The notes: a model not told the origin generated them from the letters alone. Shown: positions 822 through 60,438, counted from the stretch's first letter. The stretch is 64,000 bases of DNA from an uncultured Gammaproteobacteria bacterium (GCA_964639945.1 CAZXHY010000001.1:9527-73526); one strand, 5' to 3'. Translations and numbers: made by a program.

Positions 822-2465
822 TTATTTCTTTTTGATGGTATATATGTGAGCTAGTGCGTCGGATGTTTTTTCGTATACTCGATCATCTGCGATATAGTGC
901 TCAAAGAATGGAGTTTTTGCGAGGGTAAGTTTGTTTTGTTCCGATAATCCGACAAAATATATACTCGTTTCATGACGCTCGAGTAGCTCTATGATTTCTT
1001 CTAGTGTGAGTATACCATCGGGGTCTATGTATGCTACGTTCCGGAAGCGGAGAATAACAGTTTTTGATTGCGGTGCCATGCGGTGTATGCGCAAAAGATG
1101 CGCGTCGCGATTGAGATAGGTGAGATCTGTGTTAAATGAGTATACAAATGGGTCGCCTCCATTTTCTAATGCTTCTAGATTTTCACCTACGATGCGGTTG
1201 GTAAGTTTTTTGTTATTATTTACCAAAATTTCATAATCACCTGCACTTAATCGCTGTACTTGTCGAAGCAGCATGACGATCGACCCTAAGCTTACGGCAA
1301 TGATAGGATCTGCGCTTATGGTTACGATGCCTACAACGAGTGATATGAAAAAAGAGGCTTTGTCATGTCGATACAGAAATACAAAATGTTCTTGTTCGAT
1401 CATGTTTATGGCAACATTTACGAGAATAGCGGCGACTATGGGGAGCGGAAGATATTGAAACATTTGAAAGAATACAACGCAAACAATACCGATGGTAATA
1501 GCAGAAACCAATGCGGAAATTCTACTATTTGCCCCTGATTTAATGTTGAGACTTGTCCGTGCGAGTGCTGCGGTGACAGGGATGCCCCCCATAAATCCTG
1601 AGGTAATATTTGCAAGCGCAAGGGCTAGCATTTCTTTGCGTTCGTTAAACCGAGTTTTGGTCATAAGATTTGCTACTTTTGCTGAAAGCATGGTCTCTAT
1701 GATGGCAATAATTGCAATTACCGAAGCGCTTTGGAATAAATATCCAGTAACAAAAAATTTAGGAAACGCGGTAGGAAAAAGGTGGAGCGTAAGTGTGCCA
1801 TATTTGGAAAATAATGTAGGTATAGAGATAGGAATGATACCGATAGTAGATGTGTACCCGAGGACAATTCCGATAAGAGCGAGAAGTATGGCTCCCGGAA
1901 TAAATGGAAATTTTTTCCTTATAAATATGAGAAATGATAATCCTATGCCAAATACCACGATAGATTCTGTTTGTGCATGGGGTAATATCCGTATGGATTC
2001 AATGATATTTAATATGAGGCTTTCGTGAGCGACTGTTGGTTTGAGGGCAAATGCATTATTAAGTTGACCTAGACCAATGATACATGCGACTCCCAGCGTG
2101 AAGCCATGAATGACTGCTCCTGGGATATATATGAGATATTTATGAAAATTGAATAGCCACGCCACCAGTATGATGAGTCCAACTAGAATAGTGAGCATGG
2201 ATGCGGAAGCAAAACCATGAGCTAAGATGAACGTTAAGATAAGTCCAGACAAAGCTCCCGTTGGGCCGATTATGTTATACGCAGATCCTCCAAAAAGTGC
2301 TGCGATGACTCCTCCCCAAAATGCAGAAAGGACCCCTATGACAGGAGAGGCGCCTGAGGCAAGAGCAAGTGATATAGATAGTGGGATAGATACTAGCCCG
2401 ACTGTGATTCCCGGCTTCAGATTTATTCGAGTTTTTTCTGAGTATTTTTGAAACGTTTTTTTCAT
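822..2465 (-). CDS. SulP family sulfate/inorganic anion permease with C-terminal STAS domain
   Basis: 547 aa polytopic membrane protein. Typical SulP N-terminus (KPGITVGLVSIPLSISLALASGASPVIG) and a C-terminal STAS-like domain (ILVNNNKKL...VILRFRNVAYIDPDG). Confidence 0.85.
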   Translation of the reverse strand: MKKTFQKYSEKTRINLKPGITVGLVSIPLSISLALASGASPVIGVLSAFWGGVIAALFGGSAYNIIGPTGALSGLILTFILAHGFASASMLTILVGLIILVAWLFNFHKYLIYIPGAVIHGFTLGVACIIGLGQLNNAFALKPTVAHESLILNIIESIRILPHAQTESIVVFGIGLSFLIFIRKKFPFIPGAILLALIGIVLGYTSTIGIIPISIPTLFSKYGTLTLHLFPTAFPKFFVTGYLFQSASVIAIIAIIETMLSAKVANLMTKTRFNERKEMLALALANITSGFMGGIPVTAALARTSLNIKSGANSRISALVSAITIGIVCVVFFQMFQYLPLPIVAAILVNVAINMIEQEHFVFLYRHDKASFFISLVVGIVTISADPIIAVSLGSIVMLLRQVQRLSAGDYEILVNNNKKLTNRIVGENLEALENGGDPFVYSFNTDLTYLNRDAHLLRIHRMAPQSKTVILRFRNVAYIDPDGILTLEEIIELLERHETSIYFVGLSEQNKLTLAKTPFFEHYIADDRVYEKTSDALAHIYTIKKK

Positions 2466-2540
2466 ACGTGTTGCTTAGTTTTCAAAATTGACATTTTTTT
2501 AGTATAAAGGTAATGCCAAGAGAGGTAAATATACGGTATC

Positions 2541-3047
2541 TTACAATTTTCGACTATCATAGGCCCAGTGAAGAAGTGCCTGTCGTTGCCTCGATCGACA
2601 ATTCCAATCATACCGATAACAGTGTCGCTTGATCTGTGCTATATGTCTAGTCATCGCTTTCCATCGTTGTATTTGTCGTGCGTCATCTTCGTGACGTCGC
2701 CCCATAAAGTAGCGACAATACCACTGGAACCATCCTCGTGGATCGTCTGGGTGTATCCAATCTTTTTTCCGCCACTCAGCGAGTGGTTGACTCGCATCCA
2801 CACCAAAAAAATTTAATGCAGGGTCGTGTCGCGAGGTGCATAACTTTGCTTTGGTGAACCACGATGTTGGAAATTCATTTGTGCAGTCAGTCATGTATTT
2901 GCCACCAAATATACCAAGAGCGAGCATCTCTTTGGGAGTAAGCTCTGGTTTAAACGACGGGTCAAAGTTTTTGCCGACAGGTTCGGTCAGCAAATAGCGG
3001 TAATTGCTTTGCATGAGGTCGTTTACCACGACAACTTTTGGAATCAT
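2541..3047 (-). CDS. Conserved hypothetical protein with a '[18 protein letters not shown]' motif; possibly the DUF4385 family (uncertain)
   Basis: 168 aa soluble ORF. 4-nt ATGA overlap with the upstream DUF1295 gene indicates operon membership. Family assignment is from memory only. Confidence 0.5.
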
Positions 3048-3808
3048 ATATGCTTAGGGGGCCATGGGAAAAAGACACTTGTTCGTTTTTTATATGCATC
3101 AAATTCTGGGCGTCCTATATATTTTTTTTCTAGTAGTGGCACGCCTGAAACAAAGAGTATCAGCCAAGTAATTGTAAGAGGGCCAATAATTGTCAAAACG
3201 CCATCAGGGAGTCCGAGGGCTATACCATATATACCCCACCACATCGCCACTTCTCCAAAATAATTTGGATGTCTGGTGTACTTCCATAGACCGGTTTGCA
3301 TAATTTTTCCATGATTTGTTGGGTTTTGTACAAATCGAGCAAGCTGGGCATCACCCACTACTTCAAAATAAAACCCGATAATCCATATGGCCAATCCGAT
3401 AAAATCCTGAGTGTGTAGAGGGTAGGCGAGTGTGAGATTTATATACACAGCGGGAAGTGCGATGAGGTAGAGGAATGCTCCTTGGAGCATAAATATTTGC
3501 ACAAAACTTCGGAGATACACATGTTTCCACTCTTTTCGCCAAGTCGCATAGCGTGAATCCTCAGGTTTATCTTTGTTACGGCGATATATGTGTCGTGCAA
3601 GACGATATCCCCATAGGGATATCGCAATATTTACCACAAAAGCTCGAGTCGAATGTTCTCCGAAAAGATAGCTAGTCCAACAAAGTAGCGGAAAACCAAG
3701 TCCCCACGCAATGTCTGCTACATCGTTTCGTTTTTTGATGATTGCGACACGAAACCATATACACATGTAGAGAAACAAGATTATTGCAAAAATTCCGTAT
3801 GGATTCAT
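3044..3808 (-). CDS. DUF1295 family membrane protein (ICMT / steroid 5-alpha-reductase-like methyltransferase fold)
   Basis: 254 aa, multiple TM segments. C-terminal '[16 protein letters not shown]' motif characteristic of DUF1295/ICMT-like proteins. Confidence 0.7.
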
Positions 3809-4681: not shown

Positions 4682-5401
4682 TTATTTAAGAAAGCTAAAT
4701 GTGGAAAGTGTAGTTTTTCCGACCTCGAAAGACTTACTTCCGCGGGTTTGATTAAATTGATCAAAAAGGTATATTTTCCCTTTGTGACTGATCACCGAAA
4801 TGGTGCTTTCCCCGCGCTGGGCGGAGTTTACGGTGCCTGAGGCGACTATACCCGCCTCTCCTCCGATGAGAGTAGTAGATAGCGTGAATTTGGGTAAATC
4901 TAAAGACGCTGGCTGCGGTTGTGATGCGTCATAAAAATCTTTCACTAATTGGTTGTATTTTTCGACACCTTCCGTTTTCCACCAATCGGCTGCAGTTTTC
5001 TGTGATGGATATACATAGAGGGTGAATAGTATAGAGTCACTATTTGGGATACCCACGGAATACTCGCGTGTAGTTTTTAGTGCGGTGGTATCTTTTACTG
5101 TGTCAAATACTTCATAGGTGTCTGGTTGGTATTGGAAAGAAAAATCCTCTGTCGCGTAGTACTTCCATCCAGGAATCTGTGCCGTTTGAGCCGTTATCTC
5201 GGCTGGTGTCGGGGTGGGCACTATCGGGCCAGATGAATCGACCATGAGCTTTAGAGAAAGGAGATCGTGGGAGAGTTTGGTGTTTTGATTCAGAAGATAA
5301 GCTACGGTACTTCCAAGTCCAATCGTTATGACAAAAATAATCCAAAAGAGTATTTGAAAGATGTGAGATGAGCTACTGTCACTTTGAAGATCTTCTTCCA
5401 T
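4682..5401 (-). CDS. Hypothetical membrane-anchored/secreted protein
   Basis: 239 aa. N-terminal TM helix (IFQILFWIIFVITIGLGSTVAYLL) followed by a soluble domain. A TACAAT -10 element sits 6 nt upstream of the ATG, suggesting a leaderless transcript. No recognised domain. Confidence 0.5.
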   Translation of the reverse strand: MEEDLQSDSSSSHIFQILFWIIFVITIGLGSTVAYLLNQNTKLSHDLLSLKLMVDSSGPIVPTPTPAEITAQTAQIPGWKYYATEDFSFQYQPDTYEVFDTVKDTTALKTTREYSVGIPNSDSILFTLYVYPSQKTAADWWKTEGVEKYNQLVKDFYDASQPQPASLDLPKFTLSTTLIGGEAGIVASGTVNSAQRGESTISVISHKGKIYLFDQFNQTRGSKSFEVGKTTLSTFSFLK

Positions 5402-5420
5402 GCAACAATTGTAGCATATG

Positions 5421-5444
5421 TTTTTATGAGCGGGATAAGGGAAT
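5421..5444 (-). repeat. 24-nt direct repeat of the tRNA-Gly 3' end (mid T-loop through discriminator plus 9 nt)
   Basis: 'tttttatgagcgggataagggaat' is identical at 5421-5444 and 5622-5645. Degenerate similarity continues a few nt beyond. Confidence 0.8.
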
Positions 5445-5627
5445 AAGAGCTTGCTCGTATTTTTAGAATAACTTCGTTATACATCTAAAAATACTGTGCT
5501 TCCTCCTTATAACTTCCACAATAGTGATCCTTCGTTTTCACTATTGTGGGTTAGCGAACCCAAGAGTGTTGCACCCGCAATTCATTCATATAAAGATAAC
5601 GCGAGCTTCGCTCACATTATTTTTTTA

Positions 5628-5700
5628 TGAGCGGGATAAGGGAATCGAACCCTCTTCTCATCCTTGGGAAGGATGCATACTACCACTGTACTAATCCCGC
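5628..5700 (-). tRNA. tRNA-Gly (anticodon CCC)
   Basis: Reverse complement is GCGGGATTAGTACAGTGGTAGTATGCATCCTTCCCAAGGATGAGAAGAGGGTTCGATTCCCTTATCCCGCTCA. Cloverleaf foldable by hand. Anticodon loop is TTCCCAA and the T-loop is TTCGATT. Confidence 0.85.
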
Positions 5701-5763
5701 AAAAGAACCACATCTCATATTAGCATGAGTGTATGATGTCAGCCAATTTGGGTTTACCAAATA

Positions 5764-37000: not shown

Positions 37001-37064
37001 TGAACGTTCTCTAGTTCAAGTCTCCATATTTTGCTATAATTAGCTTTAGGCTTGTCAAAAGTAA

Positions 37065-37080
37065 ATATAGGGTCGGTAGC
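37065..37080 (+). repeat. Near-copy of the tRNA-Lys 5' end (gggtcggtagc plus 4 upstream nt)
   Basis: 'atatagggtcggtagc' at 37065-37080 versus 'atattgggtcggtagc' at 37167-37182 (15/16 identical). The latter includes the first 11 nt of tRNA-Lys. Confidence 0.7.
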
Positions 37081-37171
37081 CGCTATCACGAGCAGTGCGA
37101 GTGAGAAGCACTCTCGGGGTGTCAATGTGGGGAAAACTCTGTTATAGAAAGTCTGCAGAAAATTTAATATT

Positions 37172-37243
37172 GGGTCGGTAGCTCAATGGTAGAGCAGTAG
37201 CCTTTTAAGCTATTGGTTCAGGGTTCGAGCCCCTGCCGACTCA
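37172..37243 (+). tRNA. tRNA-Lys (anticodon TTT)
   Basis: GGGTCGGTAGCTCAATGGTAGAGCAGTAGCCTTTTAAGCTATTGGTTCAGGGTTCGAGCCCCTGCCGACTCA. Anticodon loop is CTTTTAA. Confidence 0.85.
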
Positions 37244-37247
37244 CTAG

Positions 37248-37284
37248 ATAAAATATGCCACCTTGTGTGGCATATTTTATATAT
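37248..37284 (+). terminator. AT-rich hairpin just downstream of tRNA-Lys
   Basis: Perfect 14-bp inverted repeat ataaaatatgccac (cttgt) gtggcatattttat. Confidence 0.5.
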
Positions 37285-37338
37285 TGAATTTGAGGGGCGA
37301 GAAGCGACGGTATGAAGATACCTAGTCCTCTTGTAGGA

Positions 37339-37355
37339 AGCCCCTGCCGACTCAC
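37339..37355 (+). repeat. 17-nt direct repeat of the tRNA-Lys 3' end
   Basis: 'agcccctgccgactcac' at 37228-37244 (T-loop 3' part to discriminator plus 1) is repeated exactly at 37339-37355. Confidence 0.8.
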
Positions 37356-59673: not shown

Positions 59674-59674
59674 C

Positions 59675-59699
59675 CGCCATTAAGGCGGATTCTTTTGCT
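59675..59699 (+). terminator. Rho-independent terminator
   Basis: ccgcc-attaa-ggcgg followed by 'attcttttgc', starting 2 nt after the stop codon. Confidence 0.65.
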
Positions 59700-59838
59700 T
59701 GTATAGGTGTTGGGATGAGATTGGAAAGAAATTAAACAAAAATCTTTGAATTCAATCCAATTGAAATATCATTATAAGATTTTTGAAACCATCTACAGAG
59801 CAAAACCTATTTTTTGCAAATTACATTTAAATGTTCAT

Positions 59839-60090
59839 TTAGCGAACCGAAGAGTAAAGTATGATCAATCCAATTATAAGAATTAATGCACCGAACATAT
59901 GAATAAAACTTGCTATAACAGGAGTGATTGGTTTATTTCTAGATAACAAATTTCCGATTGATGGATACGATCTAGACCATATTCTGTATCGCTCCATCAT
60001 ATCGCGGGGAATAAAAATAAAGAAAGTGCCAATAGCAATATATATTATCGAAAATACTGTATTGTCCATGAATGAATTATACTCCTTCAC
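59839..60090 (-). CDS. Small integral membrane protein (83 aa)
   Basis: GGTGAAGGAG lies 12 nt upstream of the ATG. Two TM helices. Confidence 0.45.
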   Translation of the reverse strand: MKEYNSFMDNTVFSIIYIAIGTFFIFIPRDMMERYRIWSRSYPSIGNLLSRNKPITPVIASFIHMFGALILIIGLIILYSSVR

Positions 60091-60118: not shown

Positions 60119-60136
60119 TGTACCCCCAGTCGGATT
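60119..60136 (-). repeat. 18-nt direct repeat of the tRNA-Glu 3' end
   Basis: 'tgtacccccagtcggatt' at 60119-60136 equals 60363-60380 (tRNA-Glu T-loop 3' part through discriminator plus 'AC'). Flanks show a further ~17 nt of degenerate similarity. Confidence 0.8.
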
Positions 60137-60330
60137 TGGTTGGATTACCAACCACTCACCAGCAGTATAACTCTCCTTCGACAAGCTCAGGATCGTTAAC
60201 TGCTGGATTGTCTCCTTCGGATTTCCCCTACGGGGACTGATGGTTCGTAAACTCGCAAATCAGAATTTACTTGTAAACGAACCAGTCAGCGGACCGGCAA
60301 GCCGGTTTAAACCCCGATGAGATAGACACA

Positions 60331-60359
60331 AAAAATCCGCCGTTAAGGCGGACTTTTTT
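60331..60359. terminator. Bidirectional terminator hairpin adjacent to the tRNA-Glu 3' end
   Basis: aaaaaa-TCCGCC-gttaa-GGCGGA-cttttttg. Nearly the same hairpin as at 59675. Confidence 0.7.
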
Positions 60360-60363
60360 GCGT

Positions 60364-60438
60364 GTACCCCCAGTCGGATTCGAACCGGCGATTCTCTGGC
60401 TGAAAACCAGATGTCCTAGGCCGCTAGACGATGGGGGC
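60364..60438 (-). tRNA. tRNA-Glu (anticodon TTC)
   Basis: Reverse complement is GCCCCCATCGTCTAGCGGCCTAGGACATCTGGTTTTCAGCCAGAGAATCGCCGGTTCGAATCCGACTGGGGGTA. Anticodon loop is TTTTCAG. Closely resembles bacterial tRNA-Glu. It has a G1-U72 pair and one T-stem mismatch. Confidence 0.7.

Follow-up and report, generated by a model that had tools for sequence, protein, structure and literature searches.

Repeats behind tRNA genes are known from Escherichia coli, in which 178-bp repeats follow tyrT. In strain MG1655, on which we verified them, four units behind tyrT/tyrV match the Rfam family RtT (RF00391) with 133-137 bits. In the RtT unit '..CCAAGGTTCGA' precedes a structured insert of 61 nt and AATCCTTCCCCCACCACCA follows it; the T-loop is thus divided at A58, and the last 19 nt of tRNA-Tyr close the unit. 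The small RNA rttR is annotated at this locus. A repeat of the 3' part of a tRNA that starts in the T-loop is also the classical geometry of the T-loop class of attachment (att) sites. Integrative elements also have non-autonomous derivatives, among them the cis-mobilizable elements (CIMEs) and the Xer-dependent integrative mobile elements (IMEXs). The att sites and tRNA gene fragments that occur at integrative elements have been described (PMC9897764). Here we analyze a 64,000-nt stretch of DNA recorded under an uncultured Gammaproteobacteria bacterium (GCA_964639945.1 CAZXHY010000001.1:9527-73526; hereafter the window, with positions counted from its first letter), in which the gene of a tRNA-Gly(CCC) is followed by an exact copy of its own 3' end. 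The DNA between the two copies holds a conserved, structured module of 110 nt. We give about an even chance to the reading that the repeat is part of a small protein-less, tRNA-linked unit, which belongs to an insertion class at tRNA loop sequences.

The window contains two exact copies of the 24-mer TTTTTATGAGCGGGATAAGGGAAT and no more; judged by 100 shuffles, no match is expected by chance. An earlier reading of the locus, made from the sequence only, had pointed to this exact direct repeat of the tRNA-Gly 3' end and to its 177-bp spacing (5445-5621), and both are found. The similarity widens to 27 of 28 nt when 5417-5444 is compared with 5618-5645. In the sense of the tRNA the repeat consists of ATT (A58-T60), CCCTT, ATCCCGC, the discriminator T and 8 trailer nt; the sequence-only reading correctly let it run from the T-loop through the discriminator and counted 9 trailer nt, which is a trivial difference. 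CCA is absent from the encoded tRNA-Gly(CCC) of the window. The distal copy of the repeat does not stand alone. In the left arm ahead of the module, GCGGG resembles the 5' strand of an acceptor stem and pairs with the distal CCCGC in the minimum free energy fold, and CTCTTGGGTTCG is a vestigial T-stem 5' strand followed by the T-loop residues T54-G57. The core GGGTTCG (5555-5561) and A58 (5444) are kept apart by the 110-nt module and do not form a contiguous attR. A second, 5'-degenerate tRNA-Gly copy has its T-loop split between G57 and A58 by the module, and the distal 24-mer forms the 3' part of this copy. The arrangement is also present, with 99.8-100% identity, in several assemblies made independently for this strain, so it is not an assembly artefact. 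The coordinates of the features are collected in Table 1.

Table 1. Positions of the tRNA-Gly(CCC) unit, its module and flank, and the tRNA-Lys and tRNA-Glu units in the window
Feature	Position	Strand	Basis or remark
Intact tRNA-Gly(CCC)	5630-5700 (Rfam) or 5629-5700 (ARAGORN)	minus	ARAGORN; Rfam tRNA, 64.9 bits
Proximal copy of the 24-nt repeat	5622-5645	minus	tRNA positions 58-73 and 8 trailer nt
Terminator-like hairpin ATAATGTGAGCGAAGCTCGCGTTAT, then CTTTAT, immediately behind tRNA-Gly	5596-5620	minus	Terminator scan, 1 site against 0.2 expected
Left arm (remnant)	5555-5595	minus	Sequence; GCGGG at 5574-5578 and CTCTTGGGTTCG at 5555-5566
Conserved structured module, 110 nt	5445-5554	minus	Pattern scan, alignments, covariation, model R1
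P1 hairpin of the module	Arms 5516-5527 and 5538-5549	minus	Perfect, 12 bp
Module motif GAGGAAGCACAG	5494-5505	minus	Pattern and alignments
P3 hairpin of the module	5458-5493	minus	Alignments, covariation
Module motif CGAGCAAGCTCTT	5445-5457	minus	Pattern and alignments
Distal copy of the 24-nt repeat	5421-5444	minus	3' piece, from A58, of the partial second tRNA-Gly copy with split T-loop
Native downstream flank	4682-5413	minus	TACAAT box 5408-5413 and 239-aa gene 4682-5401
tRNA-Lys(TTT) unit	37172-37355	plus	tRNA 37172-37244, terminator hairpin, 38-nt insert 37301-37338
Vestigial GAGGGGCGA of the tRNA-Lys unit	37292-37300	plus	Ahead of the 38-nt insert
Repeated 5' end of tRNA-Lys (13 upstream nt and tRNA nt 1-11)	37057-37080	plus	21/24 identical to 37159-37182
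tRNA-Glu(TTC) unit	60119-60438	minus	tRNA 60365-60438, terminator hairpin ~60331-60357
Vestigial CTGGTTCG of the tRNA-Glu unit	60278-60285	minus	Ahead of the insert
Hairpin-rich insert of the tRNA-Glu unit, 141 nt	60137-60277	minus	

The sequence-only reading had found no element between the repeats, and this part of it does not stand, as the insert holds the module. An alignable insert lies in the same place in a related locus (L072, UBA5942; L numbers denote related loci and contigs), where it has blocks in common with the window copy and a different hairpin sequence. A profile made from these two sequences additionally recovers L053 and L015. The strict pattern GAGGAAGCRCAG-N30-45-GAGCAAGCTC occurs, among the matches listed, in over 120 metagenome contigs, on some of them with two copies, and also in three Gottesmanbacteria genomes; no viral contig matched it. 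The consensus of about 110 nt reads (C/T)TATAT.AAGC, the P1 hairpin, GCT.ATATAAGAGGAAGCGCAG, the P3 hairpin and CGAGCAAGCTCTT. Its conserved parts are the single-stranded motifs and the stems covary, a pattern that is typical of structured RNAs. When pairs were counted in the proposed structure of the 3' domain, over 82 distinct sequences among the matches listed, 89.7% of the cells were paired against 81.1% after shuffling, and 142 cells showed a double change against 47.6; in control registers slid by 1-3 columns just 25-42% were paired. The closing stem, for example, covaries from ATAAGAG/CTCTTAT to ATATGAG/CTCATAT. Folding is far better than that of shuffled sequences for P1 in 87% and for P3 in 96% of 104 copies listed. 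The perfect hairpin of the earlier reading (given there with 11-bp arms, 5517-5548) is P1, with arms of 12 bp.

A covariance model built from the module alignment (R1) finds a single copy in the window, at 5442-5513 on the minus strand (65.8 bits, E=2e-15). In 1.27 Mb of related loci model R1 finds only L015, L053 and L072. Rfam has no family for the window copy nor for 12 further copies, and in the literature on the motif strings and on repeat elements of the candidate phyla radiation (CPR) nothing relevant was found. The module is an uncatalogued family of structured non-coding elements that is supported by covariation.

Where the module lies downstream of a tRNA on the same strand, the order of the parts is identical in all copies. 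An intact tRNA is followed by a terminator hairpin, by a short left arm that ends in '..GTTCG', by the module, and by 'A(T/A)T' with the 3' strands of T-stem and acceptor, which CCA sometimes closes. The carriers of this T-loop type are Gly-CCC (window, L072, L109, L053 and L015), Gly-TCC (L170), Trp (L154), Arg (L152) and Lys (L207). Since the module stands between '..GTTCG' and A58 in every one of them, its place is exactly between G57 and A58. There are also mirror-image cases (L098, L115, L125, L132, L136 and L129), in which a 3'-truncated tRNA copy upstream of the intact tRNA has its D-loop split by the module, in both orientations. Every interrupted tRNA copy is a truncated one with an intact copy beside it. 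The same layout, with other inserts, is found at Thr, Asp and Gly loci of relatives.

The PolX gene beside the locus matches genomes of Candidatus Gottesmanbacteria (CPR/Microgenomates), with a best amino-acid identity of 72%, and the gene order tRNA-Thr, tRNA-Gly, LysM gene, tRNA-Asp, PolX is kept across about 80 species. At the orthologous tRNA-Gly locus the module is present in 3 of 80 loci from GTDB, and further in L109, which came from the metagenome scan, and in the window. Other species have different inserts there or none, and the majority of the relatives are without the unit. The units of the window, L072, L109, L053 and L015 can be aligned end to end, and at the position of the terminator-like hairpin of the window the relatives show a clearer hairpin with a T-run. 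The outer stem of P3 reads TATTTTTAGA / TCTAAAAATA in the window, TGTTTTAAGA / TCTTAAAACA in L109 and TTTTTTCAGA / TCTGAAAAAG in L053; on comparison of these sequences the differences are compensatory. The distal piece (positions 58-76) is in each lineage the 3' end of its own tRNA despite differences in the T-stem, L109 having CTCGT where the window and L072 have CCCTT. In L072, L005, L047 and L053 this piece has an encoded CCA, which the functional gene is without.

Conservation of this kind leads to the main rival explanation, that the unit is a functional RtT-like RNA, made by read-through from tRNA-Gly or from a promoter of its own, whose 3' end copies that of the tRNA. Such a putative RNA would mimic the top half of a tRNA, acceptor and T-arm, with the module reaching out of the T-loop, and a selected role in RNA processing or regulation would not need any mobility. 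That five lineages keep the unit at one locus, with compensatory changes in the outer stem of P3, fits this explanation, as does the distal 58-76 piece, which is perfect and follows the T-stem of its tRNA, while the 5' remnant is decayed. The encoded CCA on four distal pieces and the matching E. coli unit, which is an Rfam family with rttR annotated, point the same way. So does the fold of 5421-5629 on the minus strand, which has an energy of -63.9 kcal/mol (z = -6.0) with GCGGG and CCCGC paired. However, a terminator hairpin lies between the tRNA and the unit, the GCGGG/CCCGC pairing is not kept in L072 or L109, about 70% of the copies are not adjacent to a tRNA and their orientation to genes is random, and most related species live without the unit. 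G-U and A-C combinations in the stems are equally frequent (22 vs 23), so these counts, tried as a call of the transcribed strand, were uninformative and give no sign of one. We therefore consider a functional RNA possible and a serious rival, at a probability well short of even.

Partial tRNA copies are common in these genomes. In a tally by hand of 190 tRNAs in the related loci, 3' fragments lie downstream of about 20 intact tRNAs and 5' fragments upstream of about 10 (~15%), and roughly half of the 3' fragments start at positions 55-59. In L053 (8108-8440, minus strand) three successive partial copies of the tRNA-Gly 3' end follow one tRNA: the first is unbroken, the 110-nt module splits the second and a 34-nt RtT-like insert the third, the outermost being the most decayed. 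In L001, L047 and L053 a 5'-truncated copy that begins in the D-loop lies 2-12 nt from tRNA-Gly (for example L053 8432-8490, minus strand), and in all three species these truncated copies have the same GC hairpin CCCGCCAACGGCGGG in place of the anticodon arm. In L001 a run of 196 N (485-680) stands precisely between two partial tRNA-Gly 3' copies, at the place expected of a terminator, a left arm and a module; this is no standard length of a scaffold gap and it may mask a sixth orthologous unit.

Another hypothesis is that the tRNA gene, or only its 3' part, was duplicated in tandem in place and then decayed, with a loop-preferring module tolerated only there, so that the repeat would have no role in movement. 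Unbroken 5'-truncated copies beside intact tRNAs in L001, L047, L053 (copy A) and L071 agree with this. The filler of the window also keeps GCGGG..GGGTTCG and an upstream stretch like the 5' flank of the tRNA itself, and direct repeats are found only at tRNA-linked copies, as an effect of survivorship predicts. Set against these are the distal 58-76 piece, which matches the tRNA at 100% next to a remnant that is about 30% diverged (by eye), and the remnants of L053 and L047, which derive from another tRNA-Gly allele than the functional gene. Moreover, about half of the 3' fragments of the relatives are split at positions 56-58 by unrelated inserts. Duplication with decay is thus unlikely, and less likely than a functional RNA.

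The tRNA-Gly locus is not the only one of its kind in the window. The sequence-only reading had noted two other loci with a repeat that starts at the same tRNA position, and these are tRNA-Lys and tRNA-Glu, so that three of the four tRNAs (Gly, Lys and Glu) have a repeat anchored at A58; tRNA-Asp of the window has none. At tRNA-Lys, 37228-37244 is identical to 37339-37355 over 17 nt from A58, and the unit reads GAGGGGCGA / 38 nt / AGCCC... The 5' end of tRNA-Lys is copied as well, in a mirror-image arrangement 78 nt upstream of the complete gene, and partial copies thus flank this tRNA on both sides. At tRNA-Glu, 60363-60380 is repeated at 60119-60136 over 18 nt exactly, again from A58 (26/31 when extended), and the unit reads CTGGTTCG / 141 nt / AATCC... 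Rfam has no match for the tRNA-Glu insert, and no homologs of the Lys and Glu inserts were found among the fetched related loci. These data are consistent with the recurrent class of small insertions targeting tRNA T-loops that the earlier reading had offered as one of its two explanations.

A third copy of the last tRNA-Glu nucleotides, the trailer and the terminator hairpin (59674-59705 vs 60337-60366, 26/30 identical) lies beyond an 83-aa open reading frame (ORF; 59839-60090, no Pfam match), which suggests nested or successive insertions. The Asp inserts of L055 and L058 open with ACTTCGACAAGCTCAG, the reverse complement of which, CTGAGCTTGTCGAAG, occurs inside the tRNA-Glu insert (~60170-60186). 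The L058 insert closes with an inverted copy of the same motif, which is also similar to CGAGCAAGCTC of the module.

The other of the two explanations was a deletion scar. It would be that of an integrase-borne element (such as a prophage or genomic island), with the repeats as attL and attR and the interior lost. A tRNA 3'-end repeat that begins in the T-loop has indeed the att geometry that had been seen in it, and the Gly-Thr region of the relatives ranges from 1 bp to 7.7 kb with cargo-like genes. Yet none of the 27 ORFs scanned in the window, all neighbours of the three loci included, codes for an integrase in Pfam scans, as had been said before, and no integrase family recurs among the 131 ORFs in the Gly-Thr variable region of the relatives. 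No viral contigs have these tRNA ends as attP; a search for such sites in phages matched only phage tRNA arrays or chance 17-mers, and blastn against phage and plasmid collections gave no similarity. In an integrase scar the attR core GGTTCG would adjoin A58, whereas 110 nt intervene, and the short unit is kept in five lineages and not deleted to varying extents. The composition of terminator, left arm (GGTTCG), module and tRNA 58-76 is preserved at this locus in four species other than that of the window, with compensatory changes in the stem, which does not fit a scar. We regard an integrase scar as quite improbable, and as still less likely than duplication with decay.

In many species of the series L001-L080 tRNA-Thr(CGT) follows 1-11 nt after tRNA-Gly, and in others, the window included, it is 1-7.7 kb away or absent. 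The genes of this interval vary (heavy-metal ATPase, SNase, methyltransferases, Bro-N), which marks a hotspot of change in gene content.

The reading that we prefer, a protein-less unit inserted at tRNA loop sequences, draws on the behaviour of the family as a whole. In the following counts the module copies among the matches listed were used. Their orientation to the flanking genes is random, with 34 upstream genes on the same and 49 on the opposite strand, and 39 vs 45 downstream, and the neighbours are diverse housekeeping genes. A tRNA lies within 300 nt of 25 of the 82 copies, and flanking direct repeats of at least 11 nt are essentially restricted to the tRNA-linked ones. Random orientation, diverse neighbours, tRNA-linked repeats and patchy presence are signs that may indicate a mobile or selfish element. 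From the architecture, module family, structure and conservation observed here we infer how such a unit may form and what it may do. Origin and spread of the unit would take place on DNA, through insertion or recombination at loop sequences of tRNAs, the target being the T-loop here and the D-loop in the mirror-image cases elsewhere. As the unit holds no enzyme, a trans-acting recombinase or host recombination, either of them within the shared segment of positions 58-76 and trailer, would be needed. With a duplicate of 58-76 and a terminator brought along or kept by the unit, the essential single-copy tRNA may remain intact. Recombination between the direct repeats could delete the unit cleanly, and such clean loss would lead to the patchy distribution among species.

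Several observations weigh against this reading. All near-identical strains (99.8-100%) hold the insert: in a comparison with relatives, as proposed at the outset, there is no polymorphism among these strains, and presence and absence do differ among species. Selection for a host function would explain the compensatory changes seen at orthologous sites equally well as selection for mobility. The three inserts of the window are mutually unrelated in sequence, so that the notion of one class rests on shared geometry and not on homology. The copies away from tRNAs have no target duplication (no repeat of at least 11 nt) and no terminal inverted repeats, and no conserved target motif was found in the 5' flanks of the module copies. 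Copy number is low, one in the 64-kb window and three in the 1.27 Mb of related loci. Finally, neither a recombinase nor a circular form nor an empty site of the same population was seen. The contig L090, which was taken up as an apparent empty-site variant, is a de Bruijn assembly chimera with the tRNA-Gly and tRNA-Thr of another species.

Several other candidates were tried for the agent or the nature of the module and were rejected. In L091 a large serine recombinase (1611-3239, with Resolvase, Recombinase and Zn-ribbon domains) adjoins tRNA-Asn and a module copy. A recombinase beside a module is directly confirmed in L091 only, and the domain occurs in at most 2 of the 150 neighbours scanned. 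No transposase family recurs in the 150 neighbouring ORFs among the 25 most frequent families listed, and a derivative of IS200/IS605 (a palindrome-associated transposable element, PATE) or a guide-RNA scaffold of TnpB/IscB does not fit, as the target at the left flank is not conserved. Insertion into hairpin loops in general was dismissed because the flanks show no complementarity (duplex energy -2.21 vs -2.37 kcal/mol in permuted controls), and a long target-site duplication because on the inner side the partial copy continues beyond the insertion point by 6-13 nt. Signal recognition particle RNA, suggested by AGGAAGCNCAG, was discarded, as the module exists in multiple copies and Rfam has no match for it; known self-cleaving ribozymes, the hammerhead included, have no Rfam match at E<=10. 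A group I or group II intron is contradicted by the truncated state of the interrupted tRNA copies and by the lack of a match to Rfam intron models. A small ORF in the insert (52 aa, 5326-5484) has a start codon that other copies do not keep, and the resemblance of the inner hairpin of P3, ATAACGAAGTTAT, to a loxP arm is a coincidence, as this hairpin covaries across copies.

Beyond the distal repeat begins the native flank. The TACAAT box lies 7 nt outside the repeat and therefore belongs to this flank and was not made by the repeat. The sequence-only reading had rightly placed it 6 nt ahead of the ATG (5399-5401) of the 239-aa gene, which has no Pfam match, and had wrongly ascribed it to the repeat. 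If TACAAT serves as a -10 box, the mRNA of this gene would be leaderless or nearly so.

We compared the unit with several known systems. Archaeal tRNA genes may have introns in D- and T-loop positions, which are linked to mobile sequences, and their bulge-helix-bulge introns are cut by a splicing endonuclease. Disruption of tRNA genes is common to both, but the archaeal introns lie in complete genes, whereas here, in a bacterial host, only partial copies are disrupted. Group I introns are found in tRNA genes and in tmRNA T-loops of Patescibacteria (PMC13011429). These introns share with our module the host phylum and the interruption of tRNA or tmRNA loops by a structured RNA sequence; the module, however, with 110 nt, is too short for a group I core and has no match to group I in Rfam. 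With a truncated copy interrupted and an intact one adjacent, splicing is neither needed nor possible.

Intergenic repeats of the MITE (miniature inverted-repeat transposable element) and repetitive extragenic palindromic (REP) types have been reviewed for bacteria (PMC10969869, PMC3184786). Like them the module is short, non-coding, hairpin-forming and intergenic, with several copies per genome in random orientation to genes. Unlike them it has no terminal inverted repeats or target-site duplication, its copy number is low, and it combines conserved single-stranded motifs with covarying stems. To the streamlined CPR genomes it adds a structured element that is supported by covariation and uncatalogued; no such repeat or element was found in the literature searched.

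With integrative elements the unit has in common a direct repeat of a tRNA 3' part around inserted DNA, the patchy presence among relatives, and a duplicate 3' end with terminator that restores a functional tRNA. It differs from them in its size of 177 bp without integrase or cargo, in the T-loop core that the module breaks, and in the existence of 5'-end mirror-image versions. Partial tRNA copies of this sort can mislead the annotation of tRNAs and the prediction of genomic islands from att sites.

The likeness to RtT goes further. Both units lie immediately downstream of their cognate tRNA, and both end in a tRNA 3' piece that begins at A58 (the last 19 nt of the tRNA in E. coli), ahead of which a vestigial 'AAGGTTCGA' and a structured insert are found. 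RtT has GGTTCGAC and the 14-mer CCCGAAGGGCGAAG in common with the short insert type of the CPR genomes (L005, L032 and L053 copy C), the outer helix of L005, GGGAAGGG paired with CCCTTTACCC, is RtT-like, and L053, like tyrT, has three successive units. On the other side, the RF00391 model has no match on 5380-5720 at E<=10 and none on L005, L032 and L053 at E<=1. The module of the window is another, longer sequence that is also present away from tRNAs; its unit is single, with no tandem array and no encoded CCA, and its host is a CPR bacterium and not an enterobacterium. A broader idea, which we put forward tentatively and consider doubtful as yet, is that the module, the other, unrelated T-loop inserts of this clade and E. 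coli RtT form one ancient protein-less structured class that homes to the universally conserved GGTTCGA T-loop and to the D-loop of tRNA genes across bacteria, each member leaving a split tRNA half that possibly acts as a top-half mimic. With the units described here, the long-unexplained RtT/tyrT repeats of E. coli would gain a counterpart in a very distant phylum, which suggests a general process at tRNA T-loops and not an enterobacterial oddity.
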